This document shows positions 2,763 to 43,342 of a stretch of 64,000 nt of DNA, in pieces. The notes below the pieces were generated by a model, which was not told where the DNA came from, did not search any database, and saw only the letters and a program-made list of their open reading frames with translations. The translations under genes and the position numbers were made by a program. The stretch is from Escherichia phage naswa, in the sequence record MN850595.1; one strand, written 5' to 3'. How positions within the stretch are numbered: the first letter of the stretch is position 1; every line of letters starts with the position of its first letter.

Positions 2763-3968
2763 ATGATTTTCATCTACGAACATTTCAAAACTCGTAAAGA
2801 AGCACGCGACCGCCGTGCAGAACTTGAGAAGAAGGGTTTCACATGTGCTATTGAGAAAGGTACTACAACATGGACACTGGCAGTAGGTGCCCCAGAGCTG
2901 TTTGATCCTGACCGAGACAGTGTCTGCTATACCCGTGAGGATTTTGAAACCCGCGAAGAGGCCCGTTTATTCCGCTACGGACTGGAAGACAACGGTAAGT
3001 ACGCCATGATCTTAGATTCAGGTGAAGGTTCCGTTAAACGTTGGGGCGTGGTATACCCACTGTGTGTTGTTCACGGTGTGGGGGTCACTGGGGTAGCAAT
3101 CAAGTCAGAAGAACCTTTAGTAGAAGTCAAAGATCCGGTGCTGGAAGTGGTGAGCAGTGTGTCTCAGCAACAGTCTCGAAGCATCGAGCCTTTGGTAGTT
3201 ATTTGCGGGGAACTCCTCCAGATCACCTGCAACGAAGGCATTTTTGAAATTCGCCGCAGCGAAAGTGAGGAAGTTTACCAGAAAGTCTTCGACCATATTT
3301 CTGTTCAGGAATATGATGAGGCAATTGGTGAAATCCTTGTCTGGCTGGAACGCAAGAATGAGTTCACCACACTTGCAGACAACCTGATCATGAAAGATGG
3401 TAAGCTCTACTACTACGGTGTAGAGATGCGATCCACCATTGCAAAGAAAATTGAGGAAGATTATGTAGATGGAACACTGGACGACCGATATGTTAAATTC
3501 CTTGTCCGTCTGCTACGCAACCCGTCTGCAAAATCTGTGAACATGCTCTACGATTTCATGCAGGCTAATGACATCCAGGTTGCAGAAGATGGTCGAATCA
3601 TTTGCTATAAGGGGGTTCAGTTTAACGGGAGCAGGTGGGTGGATTGGCACAGCGGTAAAGTTCCACAATACCAGGGTGCTTTTGTGTCCATGCCTCGTAA
3701 CTTTGTAGAAGATGATCCGGAAGCTGCGTGTTCTTATGGCCTGCACTGCGCCAGCAAAGAGTATGCAGCGGGCTATGGCACTGTAATGATGGTTATGGTT
3801 GACCCTGCGGATGTGGTTAGTGTGCCATACCAACACAACAGTGCTAAGTGCCGTGCATGCCGCTACGAAATAGTAGCAGCACCGGAATCACGCAAAGATG
3901 GCGATCCGATTGAATACGTAGTTGACCGTGATGGTAACATCATCGACATTATCTACGAGGAGGCGTAA
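2763..3968 (+). CDS. rIIB: rIIB-like protein
   Basis: C-terminal region NPSAKSVNMLYDFMQANDIQVAEDG...MPRNFVEDDPEAACSYGLHCASKEY...VDPADVVSVPYQHNSAKCRACRYEIV parallels T4 rIIB; AAGGAGA RBS. Confidence 0.75.
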   Translation: MIFIYEHFKTRKEARDRRAELEKKGFTCAIEKGTTTWTLAVGAPELFDPDRDSVCYTREDFETREEARLFRYGLEDNGKYAMILDSGEGSVKRWGVVYPLCVVHGVGVTGVAIKSEEPLVEVKDPVLEVVSSVSQQQSRSIEPLVVICGELLQITCNEGIFEIRRSESEEVYQKVFDHISVQEYDEAIGEILVWLERKNEFTTLADNLIMKDGKLYYYGVEMRSTIAKKIEEDYVDGTLDDRYVKFLVRLLRNPSAKSVNMLYDFMQANDIQVAEDGRIICYKGVQFNGSRWVDWHSGKVPQYQGAFVSMPRNFVEDDPEAACSYGLHCASKEYAAGYGTVMMVMVDPADVVSVPYQHNSAKCRACRYEIVAAPESRKDGDPIEYVVDRDGNIIDIIYEEA

Positions 3969-5338
3969 TGGAAAAAGGGCAGTATGACGTAGGCACAGAT
4001 GCTGCCCTCATTGCAATCATGAGTGGTGAGAATGTCTTCGTTTCAGGACCTGCAGGTTGTGGGAAGACGTATCTCATCAACATGATCCAGTCAATGTATG
4101 GAGACTCTTGCATAACGGTTGCCCCGACAGGGGTAGCCGCTTTAAACGTTAATGGAGCAACAGCACACCGAACATTCGATCTTGCAGCAGGTGTGAGCAT
4201 GGAGTCGGACTGGACCGCAATAAGGGCAAAAACAGCAAAGCCTTTGAAAAGCAAGGCATTTACCATCCTAATTATCGATGAAATCTCTATGATCCGTGCT
4301 GATAAGTTTATAGAGATGGATAGGAAACTCCGCTTCCTTCGAAAAAATGACAAACCTTTCGGAGGCATACAGGTCATATTGTTTGGCGATTTTTACCAGG
4401 CACCTCCTGTTGTCTCTTCTATGGAGAAGGAAGCCTACTTCAACTTCTACCATACGGACCTGTGTTGCTACACCGAATCTTGGAAAGAGCTTGACCTCCA
4501 CAACATAGCCCTAATAGATCAGTTCCGACAGGAGTCTATTCGATTTGCCACAATGCTTAACTGTGTTCGTGAGGGTCGTCGCATAAAAGAGGTTGTAGCA
4601 GAACTTAATGCTCGCTGTTACAAAGGTGGTGTACCAACAGATGCTCTCACAATTTGCGCCACCAACAAACAAGCAGAGGAAGTAAACAGAAGGTTCTATG
4701 ATGCCATCAACGCCCCAGAGAAGGTATACACTGGTGAAATGAAGGGTAAGTTTCCCTCCACCCTGCCAGTTGAGCAGGAGATGAAGTTGAAAATTGGCAT
4801 GAAAGTTATGATAACCGCCAACGATGTTGACCCGACGCACAAAGTACCTTATTATGTTAACGGAACACGTGCCACAATTGTTAAATTTAAGAACAAGGCG
4901 GTGGTGGTAGAGCTTGAAGATGGAACACAGGTTGACATAGAGCAGAGGTTGTGGGAGAATAACGAGTATAAGCCCTCTCAGAGATACAACATTGCAGAAA
5001 GGAAGATGGAGAAGTTTATAGAGAGGGTAGTGATTGGGTCATACAAGCAACTTCCTCTGAAATCTGGGTACGCCGTAACATCTCATAAAAGTCAAGGACT
5101 TACGCTAGATTGTTACAACCTAGACCTTGGAAAGAACGGAGCTTTCTCTCCTGGGATGACGTATGTCGCTTTGAGTAGAGTTAAGACAATACAAGGAATA
5201 AACTTGTTGCGTCCCCTAAGAGAAGTTGACATTATTGTTGACCCGCGAGTAGTAGAGTTTTACAATACAACATTCCCTGACTTAGACAAAATTGTCAGGA
5301 AAGATTTTGAAACCAGAGCAGAAGAGGGGGACGTATGA
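3968..5338 (+). CDS. Dda-like SF1B DNA helicase (RecD/Pif1-like)
   Basis: Walker A VSGPAGCGKT, Walker B IIDEISMI, C-terminal SHKSQGLTLD motif. Confidence 0.75.
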   Translation: MEKGQYDVGTDAALIAIMSGENVFVSGPAGCGKTYLINMIQSMYGDSCITVAPTGVAALNVNGATAHRTFDLAAGVSMESDWTAIRAKTAKPLKSKAFTILIIDEISMIRADKFIEMDRKLRFLRKNDKPFGGIQVILFGDFYQAPPVVSSMEKEAYFNFYHTDLCCYTESWKELDLHNIALIDQFRQESIRFATMLNCVREGRRIKEVVAELNARCYKGGVPTDALTICATNKQAEEVNRRFYDAINAPEKVYTGEMKGKFPSTLPVEQEMKLKIGMKVMITANDVDPTHKVPYYVNGTRATIVKFKNKAVVVELEDGTQVDIEQRLWENNEYKPSQRYNIAERKMEKFIERVVIGSYKQLPLKSGYAVTSHKSQGLTLDCYNLDLGKNGAFSPGMTYVALSRVKTIQGINLLRPLREVDIIVDPRVVEFYNTTFPDLDKIVRKDFETRAEEGDV

Positions 5339-5737: not shown

Positions 5738-7063
5738 ATGAGTAAAACCAAATTAGAACTAACCTGGATAGGTAAAAACGAGCGCAAAAAGTTAGAGCCG
5801 CACATTTTGTTAGAAGATTCTAGCAAGTCTTACCACAGCCAGAAAGTGACCGAAAACGATATTTTTGATAATAAACTGATTTTTGGAGATAACTTATTAG
5901 CATTGAAGGCGCTAGAGCAAGAGTATGCAGGCAAAGTGAAGTGTGTTTACATAGACCCGCCATTCAATACCGGGAGGGCTTTTGAGCACTACGATGATAG
6001 CCTGGAGCATTCCATTTGGCTGGGCTTAATGAGGGATAGGTTAGAAATAATTCGTAATCTTCTAAGTGATGATGGGGTAATATTCGTTCACTTAGATGAT
6101 TGCGAAATGGCGTATTTAAAAGTTTTGATGGACGAGATTTTTGGTCGTGCAAATCAGTTAAATACCATATCGATGACCACAAATTCCCCTTCGGGATTTA
6201 AGGCAACAGGAGCCACAGTTTTCTCCACAGCAAACTTTTTGCTTGTATATGCAAAAGATCGCACCCAGAAACCGCTTAATAAAATCTATATACCTAAAGG
6301 GTACGATACAGGATATAACAAATACCTATTAAACCCGGATGACCATTATAAAAATTGGACGTGGTGCAGTATTGCCGATGCGTTTGCAAAGGCCAATGGC
6401 TATAAGGATGCAAAAGAAGCCAAGAAAAAACTGCCTGACACATTCGATGATGAATTAGCACAATTCGCAATTGATAATGCAGAACGTGTATTTCAATCTG
6501 TTGCAATTGGTGGTGGTGCTAAAATAAAGAGAAAAGAAACTATCGAGAAGTCAAAGAAAGATAGGGATAAGGTTTATGTACATCCAAATGAGGATGTTGA
6601 AGGATTTTATATCGCAAATGGTAGGCAAATGGTCTTTTACTCCAATAGGCTTTTGGAAATTGACGGTGAGATGCAACCTGCGGAACTAATAACTGATGTT
6701 TGGACAGACATTAGTTGGAATGGAATAGCAAATGAAGGCGGCGTTAGTTTCAAAAATGGGAAAAAACCAGAAGCGCTTTTGAAGCGGATTTTCGAAATGT
6801 GTACGCGAGAAGGCGATTTGGTATTGGATTCATTCGGTGGTTCGGGAACTACTGCTGCTGTAGCTCACAAGATGAAAAGACGTTGGATCTCAATCGAGCT
6901 AGGTGATCATTGTCATACCCATATTATTCCGCGCTTGGAAAAAGTGATCGATGGCGAAGATCAAGGTGGTATTTCTAAGTCTGTAAGCTGGCAAGGTGGT
7001 GGTGGCTTCCGTTATTACAAACTCACCCCGGCCTTAGTTGCGAAAGATAAGTCTGATCAATAA
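5738..7063 (+). CDS. DNA methyltransferase, beta-class N6-adenine/N4-cytosine type (Mod-like, orphan)
   Basis: Motif IV DPPFNTG precedes motif I FGGSGTT; HSIWLGLMRDRL region typical of PF01555-type MTases; 5' hairpin plus CA-rich leader and AAGGAGA RBS. Confidence 0.75.
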   Translation: MSKTKLELTWIGKNERKKLEPHILLEDSSKSYHSQKVTENDIFDNKLIFGDNLLALKALEQEYAGKVKCVYIDPPFNTGRAFEHYDDSLEHSIWLGLMRDRLEIIRNLLSDDGVIFVHLDDCEMAYLKVLMDEIFGRANQLNTISMTTNSPSGFKATGATVFSTANFLLVYAKDRTQKPLNKIYIPKGYDTGYNKYLLNPDDHYKNWTWCSIADAFAKANGYKDAKEAKKKLPDTFDDELAQFAIDNAERVFQSVAIGGGAKIKRKETIEKSKKDRDKVYVHPNEDVEGFYIANGRQMVFYSNRLLEIDGEMQPAELITDVWTDISWNGIANEGGVSFKNGKKPEALLKRIFEMCTREGDLVLDSFGGSGTTAAVAHKMKRRWISIELGDHCHTHIIPRLEKVIDGEDQGGISKSVSWQGGGGFRYYKLTPALVAKDKSDQ

Positions 7064-8277: not shown

Positions 8278-8305
8278 GGCCCTGCCCGAAAGGGTGGGGC
8301 TTTTT
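8278..8305 (+). terminator. Rho-independent terminator (hairpin GCCCTGCCC-gaaa-GGGTGGGGC + T5)
   Basis: Perfect GC hairpin followed by TTTTT; same 22-bp hairpin recurs at 18424. Confidence 0.65.
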
Positions 8306-8323
8306 GCATTAGGAGACAGCAAA

Positions 8324-9088
8324 TTGAAATTTATCTACAAAGAACACTACCACAAAGGTGTTGTGTGGAGTCTATTTGACGGGTCTGGTGGTGCAGTCAT
8401 TGACTGGGCAAAAGCTGGGTACCTGTGCCTGTGCTTTAATGCAGAAGGCGCTGATCACGGCAGTTATGCAGAGGTTATAACCGATCATCCCAACATTCAC
8501 TATGTGGATTATTGGATTGACCCATGGTTCCCTCAGGAAACTTTTTGCATGTACCCAGCTCCAGACTTTATTCTTGCATTTCCTCCGTGCACGCATTTAG
8601 CGGTATCAGGTGCTGCACATTTTAAGAAAAAGCTGGCTAAGGACCCTCTGATCCAAATTAATGCCGTAAAGGATGCTCGGGTTGCGGAAGAGCTGGGAGA
8701 GATTTACGATTGCCCGTGGCATGTAGAGAATCCTGTGGGTGTTATGTCCACACTGTGGCGCAAACCTGATTACCGTTTTCATCCTTCTGACTATGGTGGG
8801 TATTTACCGGAGGATGATGTAAACCCTTGGTTTCCTGAATTTATAGCTCCACGTGATGCCTATCCAAAAATAACTTGCGGCTGGATAGGTAATGGATTTA
8901 TAATCCCGCCCACAAAACCTGTCCCGCAAATAGTTGACGCGGTTAGCGGGTATTCTATGCAACACGCCAAGCTGGGTGGAAAGAGTGCAAGAACGAAGAT
9001 GATTCGAAGTCTCACACCACGTGGCTGGGCAAAAGCCGTATTCTTAGCAAACGAGCCTGTAGTAAGGAGCAGAATTAATGGGAAGTAA
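8324..9088 (+). CDS. Putative DNA (cytosine-5)-methyltransferase-like protein, short form
   Basis: Motifs in C5-MTase order: LFDGSGG (I), FPPCTHLAVSG (IV-like PC), HVENPVGV (VI ENV-like); start set to TTG after AGGAGA because track start lies inside terminator. Confidence 0.45.
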   Translation: MKFIYKEHYHKGVVWSLFDGSGGAVIDWAKAGYLCLCFNAEGADHGSYAEVITDHPNIHYVDYWIDPWFPQETFCMYPAPDFILAFPPCTHLAVSGAAHFKKKLAKDPLIQINAVKDARVAEELGEIYDCPWHVENPVGVMSTLWRKPDYRFHPSDYGGYLPEDDVNPWFPEFIAPRDAYPKITCGWIGNGFIIPPTKPVPQIVDAVSGYSMQHAKLGGKSARTKMIRSLTPRGWAKAVFLANEPVVRSRINGK

Positions 9089-23833: not shown

Positions 23834-23915
23834 AAATCATTGACACGCTGCAAAATTTAAGTAAACTAGACACAAAAGGCGGGAATGTTTCCCGCCAGCA
23901 CAAAGGAAAAAGATC

Positions 23916-24311: not shown

Positions 24312-24315
24312 GTTT

Positions 24316-24358
24316 ATTTTTAGATGGCCTTGACACCAGGGCCATCAATAAAGTAAAC
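24316..24358 (+). promoter_or_regulatory. Conserved ~45-bp promoter module, copy 1
   Basis: TTATTTTTAGATGGCCTTGACACCAGGGCCATCAATAAAGTAAAC; -35 TTGACA inside 7-bp inverted repeat GATGGCC/GGCCATC. Confidence 0.55.
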
Positions 24359-24511: not shown

Positions 24512-24512
24512 T

Positions 24513-24540
24513 TGACAAGCTAACTTAAATCGATATAATA
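24513..24540 (+). promoter_or_regulatory. Sigma70-like promoter (TTGACA-16-TATAAT)
   Basis: Consensus hexamers upstream of 24591 gene. Confidence 0.55.
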
Positions 24541-24590
24541 AGCACATAAACGGGAAAACTTCCCAGAACACACAAAAGGAGAAAAACACC

Positions 24591-24932
24591 ATGACTACTA
24601 TGACCGCCTCAGAAAAAGCTATGCAGATCGCTGAACTGAAAAAACAGATCGCAGACCTTGAGAATAAGATCGATAACTTTGAAATCGACGAGGACAAGTA
24701 CGACGAAAACTATGATGAATGGTTAGACGAGATCTACGGCGAAATTATGATCGGAAACATTTCTTTTCTTCCGTCGCGTATCCTCAAGGAGCTAGATCCT
24801 ATCGCTTACCGCTGCGGATTTAGCGACTACATCGACAGCCTGGATATTGAGGACGATGAAGAATACCAGGAATTACAGACAGAGTTAGAAGAAGCAAAAG
24901 AAGAGCTTGCGGAGCTGGAAGAAAACGAGTAA
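24591..24932 (+). CDS. Highly acidic small protein (possible DNA mimic)
   Basis: 113 aa, Asp/Glu-rich throughout; own promoter and AAGGAGA RBS. Confidence 0.55.
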   Translation: MTTMTASEKAMQIAELKKQIADLENKIDNFEIDEDKYDENYDEWLDEIYGEIMIGNISFLPSRILKELDPIAYRCGFSDYIDSLDIEDDEEYQELQTELEEAKEELAELEENE

Positions 24933-24933
24933 G

Positions 24934-24976
24934 CTTATTTTTAGATGGCCTTGACACCAGGGCCATCAATAAAGTA
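24934..24976 (+). promoter_or_regulatory. Conserved ~45-bp promoter module, copy 2
   Basis: Near-identical to 24316-24358. Confidence 0.55.
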
Positions 24977-25021
24977 AACTTTATACTGTTAACACTGAAC
25001 TAATGCATAGGAGTTAAAACC

Positions 25022-26401: not shown

Positions 26402-26458
26402 TAAACACACAGGCGGGAAAACTTCCCGCCACTAACAAAGAAAATAGGAGAAAATATC

Positions 26459-27082
26459 ATGACCACCGTTAACATTACTACAGGTTACAATTTATCTTTC
26501 GACGTGCTGACCGACGAACAAAAAGAAAAAGCCGTTGAAATGGTCCGCGAAAGAGAAGAACACAGCGGGGATAATTTTTTTGCAGAAAGTGTAATTGAAT
26601 ACTATAAAGAATATGTTTTTCCAGAGTATGGCCTTGAAGATACCGAAGTACATTGGTCAGGCTTTTGGTGCCAGGGTGACGGCGCGTCAATCAGTGCGGA
26701 AAACGTGGATTTAGAAAAATTCTTGCGTAAAGTAAAGGCCCTGACCAAGTTCCGATCAATTCGTCACTTGTTCGGCACAATGCACGATGGCGAGCTATCC
26801 GCAAGTGTTGAGCGTGATCCATATAGCCGCTATAGTCACGAAAACACTGTAAGCGGGTACATCGATACTACATGGCTAGACCTGACCGCCAAACAAGAAA
26901 ATAAAGTGGAAGATCTGGAAGAGCTGATCACCGAGACGGTACGGGAGCTATCCCGCAAGGTTTACGTAGACCTGGAGGAGGCCTATCTTGAGCAATTTAC
27001 CGCCGAAAACTTGATCGGCCTTATCGAGGCAAATGATTGGCGGTTTGATGTGGATGAGCATGGCGAGATGAGTTTTTCATAA
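26459..27082 (+). CDS. Hypothetical protein (largest of the early small-gene array, 207 aa)
   Basis: Leader hairpin GGCGGGAA-AAC-TTCCCGCC then CA-rich tract and AGGAGA RBS; no recognisable motif. Confidence 0.55.
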   Translation: MTTVNITTGYNLSFDVLTDEQKEKAVEMVREREEHSGDNFFAESVIEYYKEYVFPEYGLEDTEVHWSGFWCQGDGASISAENVDLEKFLRKVKALTKFRSIRHLFGTMHDGELSASVERDPYSRYSHENTVSGYIDTTWLDLTAKQENKVEDLEELITETVRELSRKVYVDLEEAYLEQFTAENLIGLIEANDWRFDVDEHGEMSFS

Positions 27083-28667: not shown

Positions 28668-28710
28668 TTTATTTTTAGATGGCCTTGACTCCAGGGCCAT
28701 CAATAAAGTA
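28668..28710 (+). promoter_or_regulatory. Conserved ~45-bp promoter module, copy 3
   Basis: TTATTTTTAGATGGCCTTGACTCCAGGGCCATCAATAAAGTAAAT, one mismatch in -35. Confidence 0.5.
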
Positions 28711-28759
28711 AATTTAAACCCTGTTAAAAATACCACGCAGTTAACAAGGAGTGATAGAC

Positions 28760-30780: not shown

Positions 30781-30828
30781 GTACTACATAGCGCGGGAAT
30801 ACTTCCCGCCATTAATGAGGGTAATTTA

Positions 30829-36265: not shown

Positions 36266-36481
36266 TCAGTCTAGCGGTTCATCCTCTACTTCACTGAAAT
36301 CAATGTTCATGGTCTCTTCCCAACCATCGATCTCAGCACAAGAGTGGAGTTCTTTAGGGTTTACTCCCAAAGCCTCAGCAACAGAGTCTATATTTAACAC
36401 CTCTGGCAGGTATGATTCATCGAATTCAAGGTAAATCAGGCCACGAGTGTTGTCAGCTCCACCAAATATCTCTATCTTCAT
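36266..36481 (-). CDS. Small acidic protein
   Basis: 71 aa Asp/Glu-rich ORF; last gene of minus-strand block. Confidence 0.45.
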   Translation of the reverse strand: MKIEIFGGADNTRGLIYLEFDESYLPEVLNIDSVAEALGVNPKELHSCAEIDGWEETMNIDFSEVEDEPLD

Positions 36482-36602: not shown

Positions 36603-36815
36603 TCATAGTCTACCACCTCTGAACTCTTCGTGCTCAGGCATAATAGAGAACCAGATATCTACGATGTCCTCCCACGTCAGGTCATCAGCCTCAGGATCTG
36701 TCTGGGACGAAGATGAAGAGTCCTCAGAATCTAAGTTTCCCTCTTTAACTGGCTCATCCAAGGGACATATGGTCACTCCTTCGGATGTCTCTTCAGATGC
36801 ATGTGTGTTGATCAT
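36603..36815 (-). CDS. Small acidic Ser/Asp/Glu-rich protein
   Basis: 70 aa ORF, ATGA overlap with upstream small ORF. Confidence 0.45.
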   Translation of the reverse strand: MINTHASEETSEGVTICPLDEPVKEGNLDSEDSSSSSQTDPEADDLTWEDIVDIWFSIMPEHEEFRGGRL

Positions 36816-39247: not shown

Positions 39248-39576
39248 TAGTCTTCCTCCAGGTTCAAAGGCCCTAAGATTTCATATGCCAGATTAGAAGT
39301 TACCAGAGGGTCTTCTGCATCTTTAGTATTATACCACCCGTGAATAACCAGAGTCCCACTCTGTTTCATATCTAACTGGAACTGTTCTGCAGTTTCCTCA
39401 TCCATCTCTAAGATCTCCATAAGGTACTTGATGTTAGGAAGGTATGCAGCTGTTACAGTTCCCTCCACCAAACCTTCGGGCCAACCTACATCCGGATGAC
39501 AAGTAGGAACCAGATTAGTCAGCTTAATAGTGTACGCTTTTTCTGCACGAGCCTTCAGTAACGGGTCAATCTTCAT
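39247..39576 (-). CDS. Hypothetical protein (possible family A member)
   Basis: 109 aa; MKI N-terminus, VIHG core, AYEILG C-terminal motif. Confidence 0.5.
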   Translation of the reverse strand: MKIDPLLKARAEKAYTIKLTNLVPTCHPDVGWPEGLVEGTVTAAYLPNIKYLMEILEMDEETAEQFQLDMKQSGTLVIHGWYNTKDAEDPLVTSNLAYEILGPLNLEED

Positions 39577-39926
39577 TATTCGTCCTCCTCTTCGGTGCCT
39601 GCTTCCAGTAATAAGTTAAGAATATCTTCTGCACAAGGTTCATAGAACTCTTGGCCTTCATTATCGATGATTTTGTAGTCATCTCCACGAATAATCAGGG
39701 GATCACTCTCAAAATTATCGAGACCTTTAACAACGACAACACGATCGATTGCCATCATTGTAAGAACTTTATCGACATCTTCCTCTGCTACACCATACTG
39801 CAGCAGAATGTCTTTGGTAGGAGGAACAGCATCCACCACAACGCCGTTACCAAAACCTTCTGGAAGTTTAGCTAAAATATCTTCCGGAACCACATTCACA
39901 TCAAAACCGGTAATTTCTACTTTCAT
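39576..39926 (-). CDS. Paralog family A small protein
   Basis: MKVEITG N-terminus, VVVVKGLD core, acidic C-terminus. Confidence 0.5.
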   Translation of the reverse strand: MKVEITGFDVNVVPEDILAKLPEGFGNGVVVDAVPPTKDILLQYGVAEEDVDKVLTMMAIDRVVVVKGLDNFESDPLIIRGDDYKIIDNEGQEFYEPCAEDILNLLLEAGTEEEDE

Positions 39927-42870: not shown

Positions 42871-43125
42871 CTACCGCTCTACAATCTCTACATCTGTTCC
42901 TACACCGAAGGCATAGTAATGTTCTTCCCCAAAGTAATACTTGGGGACACCCGCTTTGATCAGATCTAACCCGCGAATAAATACCACACCGTGTGATACA
43001 GTGGAATGCTTCTGACGCACAGGATCGTTGTCAGGCAACCATTCAAAGTACACCGCAGGTACAACCTTTCCCTTCAGGAAGGATTGTCCCAAGTAGACGT
43101 TAGAATCAAGAATTTTAACCTTCAT
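42871..43125 (-). CDS. Paralog family A small protein
   Basis: MKVKIL N-terminus, VVFIRGLDLIKAG core, DVEIVER C-terminus. Confidence 0.55.
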   Translation of the reverse strand: MKVKILDSNVYLGQSFLKGKVVPAVYFEWLPDNDPVRQKHSTVSHGVVFIRGLDLIKAGVPKYYFGEEHYYAFGVGTDVEIVER

Positions 43126-43342
43126 TCTCGTCCTCCACTATCTCTACATCCTCACCAAGGGCAAAGTTGTAGGTCCACTGGCTGTCAAAGCAGTCCTGAG
43201 ATGCACCAGCGGCAATAAGATCTGCACCTTTTATTTTTAAAAGGTCAGGATAATCTTCGTTAGGGATAGCGGTAAACACTTTCCCCACTAAGGGCTCCTG
43301 ACCAATATAGAAGCTTGAATCTAAAACTTTAACTTTCATCAA
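43115..43342 (-). CDS. Paralog family A small protein
   Basis: MKVKVL N-terminus, LLKIKGADLIAAG core, DVEIVED C-terminus. Confidence 0.55.
   Translation of the reverse strand: MMKVKVLDSSFYIGQEPLVGKVFTAIPNEDYPDLLKIKGADLIAAGASQDCFDSQWTYNFALGEDVEIVEDENEG

Follow-up and report, generated by a model that had tools for sequence, protein, structure and literature searches.

The open reading frame (ORF) at positions 24591-24932 of Escherichia phage naswa (record MN850595.1; the whole stretch analysed, 64,000 nt, is referred to as the window) is, judging from its sequence, a genuine gene and not a chance ORF, since its product recurs unchanged in Escherichia phage EmilHeitz, matches the family phrog_9294 and is related to more distant proteins of unrelated phages, with identities as low as ~35-40%. 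It encodes a member of a large, uniformly acidic family for which Pfam, NCBIfam, PADLOC and PHROGs offer no annotation and no structural relative has been solved. The protein most resembles the small acidic early anti-defence or DNA-mimic proteins, but its architecture differs and no homology to them was found. It represents a credible DNA-mimic candidate which is cheap to test.

The acidic gene and its surroundings

A preliminary description of this stretch had claimed a product of 113 aa dominated by Asp and Glu and preceded by its own consensus promoter, and both statements were confirmed. Asp and Glu account for 36 of the 113 residues (31.9%), next to 9 Lys and Arg, with a net charge of -27 and a computed pI of ~4.05. 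The acidic run quoted at that time, EDDEEYQELQTELEEAKEELAELEENE, corresponds to residues 87-113. The two strands of the window contain 166 ATG-initiated ORFs of 60 aa or more, and the computed pI of this product ties with the lowest of them. Within the listed 25 ORFs of lowest pI, its Asp/Glu fraction is the highest and its net charge the second most negative, after that of a 362-aa ORF at -28. Most of the charge falls on two segments, residues 31-50 (net -9) and 84-113 (net -15); the segments 1-30 (net -1) and 51-83 (net -2) are close to neutral. The traits of the DNA-mimic class, i.e., small size, very low pI and much Asp/Glu, are found in the 113-aa product and also family-wide.

The promoter (Table 1) lies within the 79-nt gap 3′ of an upstream 39-aa ORF and is one of three perfect 12/12 matches on the plus strand of the window. 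The palindrome that follows it, GGGAA-N3-TTCCC, is present four times on the plus strand of the window (23881-23893, 24552-24564, 26415-26427 and 30795-30807), in all cases 13-15 nt 3′ of a sigma-70-like -10 hexamer (shuffle expectation 0.18). It could serve as a shared 5′-leader hairpin for mRNA stability or as the operator of a dimeric regulator at some early promoters. Additionally, a 45-nt intergenic repeat, for which the number of copies expected by chance is 0, consists of a hairpin (GATGGCC/GGCCATC) with a TTGACA hexamer in its loop, and its two exact copies bracket a cassette formed by the 39-aa ORF and the acidic ORF. This arrangement is reminiscent of T4-type phages, in which promoter stem-loop cassettes shuffle early genes.

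Over 2 kb around the gene, the sequence is 99.9% identical to EmilHeitz (Bas49, an rV5-like Vequintavirus) and 96-99% identical to ~110 further Vequintavirus records, and the protein itself is 100% identical to the hypothetical protein bas49_0110 of EmilHeitz. The gene is located inside a long series of small unannotated same-strand ORFs with frequent near-consensus sigma-70 promoters, and the opposite strand carries a second block of small unannotated ORFs with such promoters. This appears to be the usual layout of an early region transcribed by the host polymerase, from which we infer early timing of expression in this phage. The early blocks hold ~100 unannotated genes, several of which are also strongly acidic. 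The neighbouring genes and the other acidic ORFs gave no Pfam matches, and every PHROG matched is of unknown function. Four small acidic ORFs of the minus-strand block (39576-39926, 36266-36481, 36603-36815 and 43115-43339; net charge -10 to -21, pI ~4.05) are candidates for a decoy-type function no less valid than the product of 24591-24932. Another plus-strand gene, 26459-27082, encodes a 207-aa protein of phrog_5162 (unknown function) with a conspicuous WSGFWCQGDGASI motif and without a Pfam match. Of the genes further upstream, the 264-aa ORF contains motifs that are suggestive of a C5-methyltransferase.

Table 1. Positions of the gene, its control elements, its predicted domains and selected other genes in the window.
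Feature	Position	Strand	Remarks
PIF1-like helicase	3968-5338	+	
N6_N4 DNA methyltransferase	5738-7063	+	PF01555, E = 4e-42
264-aa ORF	8294-9088	+	FDGSGG and FPPC motifs by eye; no Pfam match
45-nt intergenic repeat, upstream copy	24314-24358	+	exact match to 24935-24979; 10/12 promoter-like site
Sigma-70 consensus promoter of the acidic ORF	24512-24539	+	TTGACA-16 nt-TATAAT, 12/12 match
Palindrome / 5′-leader stem-loop GGGAAAACTTCCC	24552-24564	+	13 nt after the -10 hexamer
Shine-Dalgarno sequence AAGGAG	24576-24581	+	9 nt upstream of the ATG; read off the sequence
CDS of the acidic protein	24591-24932	+	113 aa, ATG start, TAA stop; equals EmilHeitz bas49_0110 / QXV78012.1; phrog_9294
N-terminal amphipathic heptad helix	24606-24674	+	residues 6-28; roughly charge-neutral
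Conserved core mini-domain	24690-24839	+	residues 34-83; from alignments A1-A3, AlphaFold2 models and core profile
C-terminal hyper-acidic heptad helix	24858-24923	+	residues 90-111; 11 acidic, 1 basic; lineage-specific, not in 64-aa members
45-nt intergenic repeat, downstream copy	24935-24979	+	begins 3 nt after the stop codon of the acidic ORF
45-nt intergenic repeat, third copy	28669-28713	+	2 mismatches

Conservation and distribution of the core domain

The match of the acidic protein to phrog_9294 extends over its full length (E = 2e-53), and its core matches phrog_9396 and phrog_37123 at about 1e-10. On the basis of sequence comparison, these three families, all without functional annotation, are the sole memberships that can be demonstrated. 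A word-indexed protein search yielded 71 relatives, and the aligned relatives share a motif of ~45 aa, YDxxLDExYGxvxIxGxxFxxSRxLKELDPIAYRCGFSDYxD. The near-invariant residues of this core (Y41, D46, S62, L65, E67, D69, P70, I71, A72, Y73, C75, G76, D79 and Y80) are all present in the naswa protein. Four acidic positions, D46, E67, D69 and D79, are conserved at 90% or above; the most conserved residues are otherwise mostly non-acidic (Y41, S62, L65, P70, I71, A72, Y73, C75, G76 and Y80). The acidic flanks differ in sequence and length across the family or are missing, and the terminal heptad helices are lineage-specific. Some relatives consist of 64 aa and comprise the core only (P0054-P0057), and the hyper-acidic C-terminal helix is dispensable in many members. 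The acidic runs vary across the aligned relatives, and the conserved part is the largely non-acidic core motif.

Run against 1.84 billion cluster representatives, a profile of the core matched 3,719 at E <= 1e-3, of which 1,529 also passed E <= 1e-10; at 50% identity, the family thus numbers no fewer than 3,719 clusters. Most of the matching proteins are 50-150 aa long and few are multi-domain. All of the 146 newly sampled representatives are net-negative (median -22 at 107 aa), the core by itself contributing about -10 over 53 aa and the flanks, which are not homologous to each other, about -0.24 charges per residue. Since core and flanks are net-negative in 146 out of 146 cases, negative charge is selected family-wide and is not a quirk of one member. 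Marine proteins were found with two or three tandem copies of the core, and one protein of 712 aa also contains DUF3849, the only fusion partner that reached significance. In a set of larger proteins (P0072-P0081, 211-837 aa), two or three core copies, N-terminal in most, are followed by unrelated modules; AETFGAE-like linkers recur between the modules, and most of the larger ones have a C-terminal hydrophobic anchor. By sequence, these proteins look like polyproteins or polyvalent effectors with repeated cleavage-site-like linkers.

A tblastn search of the core against 50,697 phage records matched 200 of them. While 114 are Vequintavirus-type at 90% identity or above, the 86 distant matches are from Pseudomonas PAK_P1/PAK_P3-like, Vibrio, Klebsiella, Serratia, Proteus, Providencia, Microbacterium and Clavibacter phages, and a BFVD structure search added Gordonia and other phages. 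Among the listed matches with an annotated feature, all are hypothetical or unnamed proteins. A plasmid scan gave one match, a 137-kb Vequintavirus-like record, and a strict-pattern scan of 185,579 species genomes gave one locus, in a cyanobacterial MAG. Because each of these two scans yielded a single match, the core family seems to be essentially confined to virulent phages.

With regard to genome position, homologues lie within the first 2-3 kb of two Autographiviridae, where they belong to the first genes after the terminal repeat and are close to, or preceded by, annotated host-type promoters. Providencia phage PS3 encodes two paralogues within its first 3.2 kb, gp02 and gp05 (1683-1886 and 2931-3131; net -12 each), which are both among the first genes after the terminal repeat, gp02 being directly 3′ of an annotated host-type promoter. 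In Proteus phage PM75 the homologue is gene 002 (2149-2364), with a DNA methylase ~1 kb downstream. This left-end position in phiKMV-like phages is analogous to that of T7 gene 0.3. In marine phage contigs the homologue resides in a small-ORF array adjoining the terminase and portal block, and in a PAK_P3-type Pseudomonas phage it is gene 86 (132 aa, net -28), likewise in a small-ORF array; for the related phage PAK_P4, RNA-seq assigned gp080-gp124 to the early region (PMC5563952). No conserved neighbour gene was evident in the loci examined. A literature search found no paper on the core family, and a CRISPRi-ART study that included the Vequintavirus EdH4 used this phage only for capsid and rII knock-downs. 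Taken by itself, the core family is a cleanly defined domain family without structural genomics coverage.

Predicted structure and comparison with known DNA mimics

AlphaFold2, supplied with a 43-sequence alignment, returned a confident model (pLDDT 91, pTM 0.68) with helices at residues 6-28 and 34-49, a beta-hairpin at 52-59 and helices at 61-68, 70-83 and 90-111. In the naswa protein, the core, composed of the acidic helix 34-49, the beta-hairpin and two helices, is thus placed between two terminal heptad helices. Hydrophobic residues follow a 3-4 spacing in both the N-terminal (I13, L16, I20, L23, I27, F30) and the C-terminal helix (Y92, L95, L99, A102, L106, L109). According to the model, these helices most likely pair as an intramolecular antiparallel hairpin, and the core would then sit at the end of a stalk made of two antiparallel heptad helices. 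Fold searches with the model matched neither a solved structure nor a known DNA mimic.

Similarity to known DNA mimics or anti-restriction proteins was absent at the level of sequence, profile and fold. Searches of Pfam, NCBIfam and PADLOC gave sub-threshold matches only, and the best E-value of the PDB sequence and profile searches was 0.18. Matches such as those to GvpG, FlxA, STAT_alpha, HalX, LmuB and the SbcC-like phrog_77 were below threshold, lay on the heptad helices and were dismissed as coiled-coil noise. The database names "gas vesicle protein GvpG", "Zn-ribbon protein" and "SbcCD ATPase subunit", under which some homologues are listed, are likewise artefacts of this sort.

ArdA (PF07275) is acidic, of comparable size and shows a short local resemblance, DYQAYGRD versus DPIAYRCG in the core. 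It was neither among the best 25 of 30 Pfam matches of the full protein at E <= 1 nor among those of 25 core sequences at E <= 10, and PDB searches by phmmer and hmmsearch did not list 2w82 (ArdA) among their matches. Since sArdN and sArdC, DNA mimics of ~60 aa which have about one third of the length of full ArdA, block type I restriction-modification (R-M) (PMC12548430), and in view of the resemblance just mentioned, a direct profile comparison was built. The hhalign probability for alignment A3 was 0.3% against a single ArdA sequence and 0.1% against a 19-sequence alignment of the ArdA C-domain, A4 (E = 0.5, 8 columns), the 8 columns being exactly DPIAYRCG and DYQAYGRD. Homology to the ArdA C-domain, which had been prompted by a visual P-S...D-x-x-A-Y likeness, was rejected at this probability of 0.1%.

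T7 gp0.3 (Ocr), a DNA-mimic inhibitor of type I R-M and also of BREX as well as a trigger of PARIS, is a very acidic protein of 117 aa with an acidic C-terminal tail and is the first gene expressed from host promoters. The naswa protein is similarly small and very acidic, including its C-terminal end, but shares neither sequence nor fold similarity with Ocr, which is an all-helical elongated dimer, whereas a mini alpha/beta core plus heptad hairpin is predicted here. Another T7 protein, gp5.9, has a length of 52 aa. This acidic (pI 4.0) coiled-coil DNA mimic inhibits RecBCD (PMC9836394) and is also reported to inhibit MukBEF (PMC7617805). With gp5.9 the naswa protein has in common a pI of ~4.0, its nature as a small phage protein and heptad helices with outward Asp/Glu. 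However, gp5.9 forms a coiled-coil dimer of parallel helices, which a short beta-sheet braces, and lacks a conserved globular core, while the two heptad helices of the naswa protein belong to one chain, flank the core and are most likely antiparallel. PDB sequence and fold searches revealed no similarity to gp5.9 or Gam.

Restriction of carrier phages and possible functions

EmilHeitz, which encodes the identical protein, and its relative CarlMeissner were challenged with R-M systems in the BASEL study (Table 2; PMC8594841). The main text of this study describes the Vequintavirinae as "exceptionally susceptible" to R-M, which could be taken as a refutation of an anti-restriction function; this argument was dropped, as the raw efficiencies of plating (EOPs; S1 Data, S5 Table) show that the statement holds for type II and partly for type III systems, not for type I. 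Since the EOP is ~1 with 14-17 EcoKI sites, compared with 1e-4 to 1e-5 for phages with 3-7 sites, some mechanism of type I evasion must exist in EmilHeitz-like phages. The window itself contains 10 EcoKI and 4 EcoAI-type sites. Escape from type IA and type IB systems specifically points to a decoy of the Ocr or ArdA type or to some other countermeasure directed at type I enzymes, and the type-I-only escape of EmilHeitz is in this respect Ocr-like. The strong restriction by EcoRI and EcoRV implies that any anti-restriction role is limited to type I, and the partial resistance to type III systems might be explained by the N6_N4 methyltransferase. No annotated type I countermeasure gene was found in the genome region examined. 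The specific escape of the carrier phage from type I systems without such an annotated gene makes the idea of the preliminary description more concrete. Nevertheless, the phi92-like phages Bas60-62, with 12-14 EcoKI sites, also plate at an EOP of 0.1-0.7 on EcoKI (PMC8594841), and tblastn gave no Escherichia-phage match to the core outside the Vequintavirus group of 90% identity or above, phi92-like phages included. The case for the acidic ORF as the cause of type I escape is circumstantial.

Table 2. Published plating of Vequintaviruses and reference phages on hosts with R-M systems.
Phage	System	Sites	EOP	Source
EmilHeitz (Bas49)	EcoKI	17	0.57-1.2	BASEL raw data (PMC8594841)
EmilHeitz	EcoCFT_I	5	0.7-1.25	PMC8594841
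EmilHeitz	EcoRI		~1e-3	PMC8594841
EmilHeitz	EcoRV		below 1e-13	PMC8594841
EmilHeitz	type III systems		0.1-0.8	PMC8594841
CarlMeissner (Bas48)	EcoKI / EcoCFT_I	14 / 4	behaves like EmilHeitz	PMC8594841
Bas01	EcoKI	3	~1e-4	same hosts, PMC8594841
Bas02	EcoKI	7	~1e-5	same hosts, PMC8594841
Bas01-03	EcoCFT_I	5-7	4e-4 to 1e-2	PMC8594841

Based on these observations, we tentatively propose, at limited confidence, that the protein acts as a stoichiometric nucleic-acid-like decoy against a host DNA-binding enzyme. The acidic ORF would be transcribed by the host RNA polymerase promptly after DNA entry, and the product would occupy the DNA-binding surface of the enzyme and thereby keep it off the phage DNA. 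Target specificity might come from the conserved non-acidic face of the small rigid core, and phosphate-like contacts from the acidic helix 34-49 and the C-terminal helix, with the linkers being Asp/Glu-dense as well. Among candidate targets, type I R-M enzymes (EcoKI and EcoAI families) would be the most concrete, since phages with the identical protein escape both families despite many sites. RecBCD-type nucleases or nucleoid/SMC proteins could be targeted by the same mechanism, as such targets are inhibited by the acidic coiled coil of gp5.9.

The anti-restriction proposal of the preliminary description is upheld in part. It is favoured by the composition and small size of the protein, its promoter, the family-wide acidity and the left-end homologues, by the precedents of gp5.9 and sArdN/sArdC, and by the escape of the carrier phage from type I R-M despite many sites. 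On the other side, no similarity to known mimics was found, the acidic runs highlighted at that time turned out to be the variable part of the family, EcoRI and EcoRV restrict the carrier phages strongly, and phi92-like phages without a core match escape EcoKI. For a decoy in general speak also the four acidic core positions conserved at 90% or above and the existence of tandem-copy and polyvalent-protein fusions. Arguments against a decoy in general are, likewise, the mostly non-acidic character of the conserved residues, the missing homology to mimics, the ~100 other early genes, the methyltransferase and the phi92-like escape.

The same conservation pattern would suit a different function, the main rival of the decoy, which we rate as somewhat unlikely: through specific protein-protein contacts, the product would inhibit or modulate a host factor that is not one of the DNA-binding enzymes of defence. 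Examples of such a factor would be RNA polymerase or a sigma factor, proteases, and proteins of metabolism or cell division. Here, the invariant non-acidic face of the core would act and the charge would be incidental, contributing to solubility, mini-protein folding or electrostatic steering. In line with this, conservation is strongest in the non-acidic residues of SRxLKELDPIAYRCGFSDY while the acidic flanks vary or are absent, the predicted fold is like that of no DNA mimic, all neighbours are of unknown function, and phage early regions are typically dominated by host-takeover genes. Yet solubility alone hardly explains the uniform negative charge in the 146 representatives, in their flanks and in tandem copies, and, as suggested by the model, the conserved non-acidic set may largely be needed just for the folding of 45 aa (helix caps S62 and D69-P70, core hydrophobics, turn glycines). 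If, instead, the protein is a DNA mimic directed against RecBCD-type nucleases, or against H-NS or MukBEF, the incoming linear genome would be protected or freed. RecBCD inhibitors are known with T7 gp5.9 and lambda Gam, and nucleoid/SMC inhibitors with T4 Arn and gp5.9. The spread of the family over virulent phages of Proteobacteria and Actinobacteria fits such a near-universal target, the annotated genes of the region examined include no RecBCD or end-protection function, and gp5.9 sets the precedent that an acidic coiled coil suffices (PMC9836394). We nonetheless consider this improbable: PDB searches by sequence and by fold showed no likeness to either gp5.9 or Gam, and the presumed intramolecular antiparallel hairpin differs from the parallel gp5.9 dimer.

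The promoter-plus-palindrome cassette which the acidic ORF has in common with three other early units suggests coordinated regulation, and acidic coiled-coil proteins commonly chaperone basic partners. Both points would agree with a phage-internal role, either as an acidic chaperone or regulator of a basic phage protein or as a regulator of early-expression timing. We give such a role little chance, as the family spans phages with unrelated replication and transcription machineries (rV5-like, phiKMV-like, PAK_P1/P3-like, marine and actinophages); moreover, no conserved neighbour is evident in the loci examined, and the multi-domain fusions point to the host and away from a phage-specific partner. 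Returning to the decoy, a bolder version of it would be that the ~45-aa "DPIAYRCG" core is a new widespread modular decoy, deployed by itself, mounted on coiled-coil stalks, repeated in tandem or embedded in polyvalent proteins, and at the same time the factor that renders Vequintaviruses immune to type IA and IB systems despite 9-17 EcoKI sites; that both hold together seems quite unlikely to us.

Should the decoy reading be wrong, the gene would be one more acidic early gene, yet one belonging to a well-defined domain family. If it is true, the protein would explain an overlooked BASEL phenotype, the full resistance of Vequintaviruses to both type I systems tested. It would further serve as a very small scaffold on which inhibitors of DNA-binding enzymes could be engineered, and as a marker from which the host range of therapeutic rV5-like phages could be predicted, and it would assign a function to thousands of "hypothetical" small phage genes at once. 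If the core is indeed a modular decoy, the anti-restriction DNA mimics would gain a new fold and, with it, what is probably their most numerous family.
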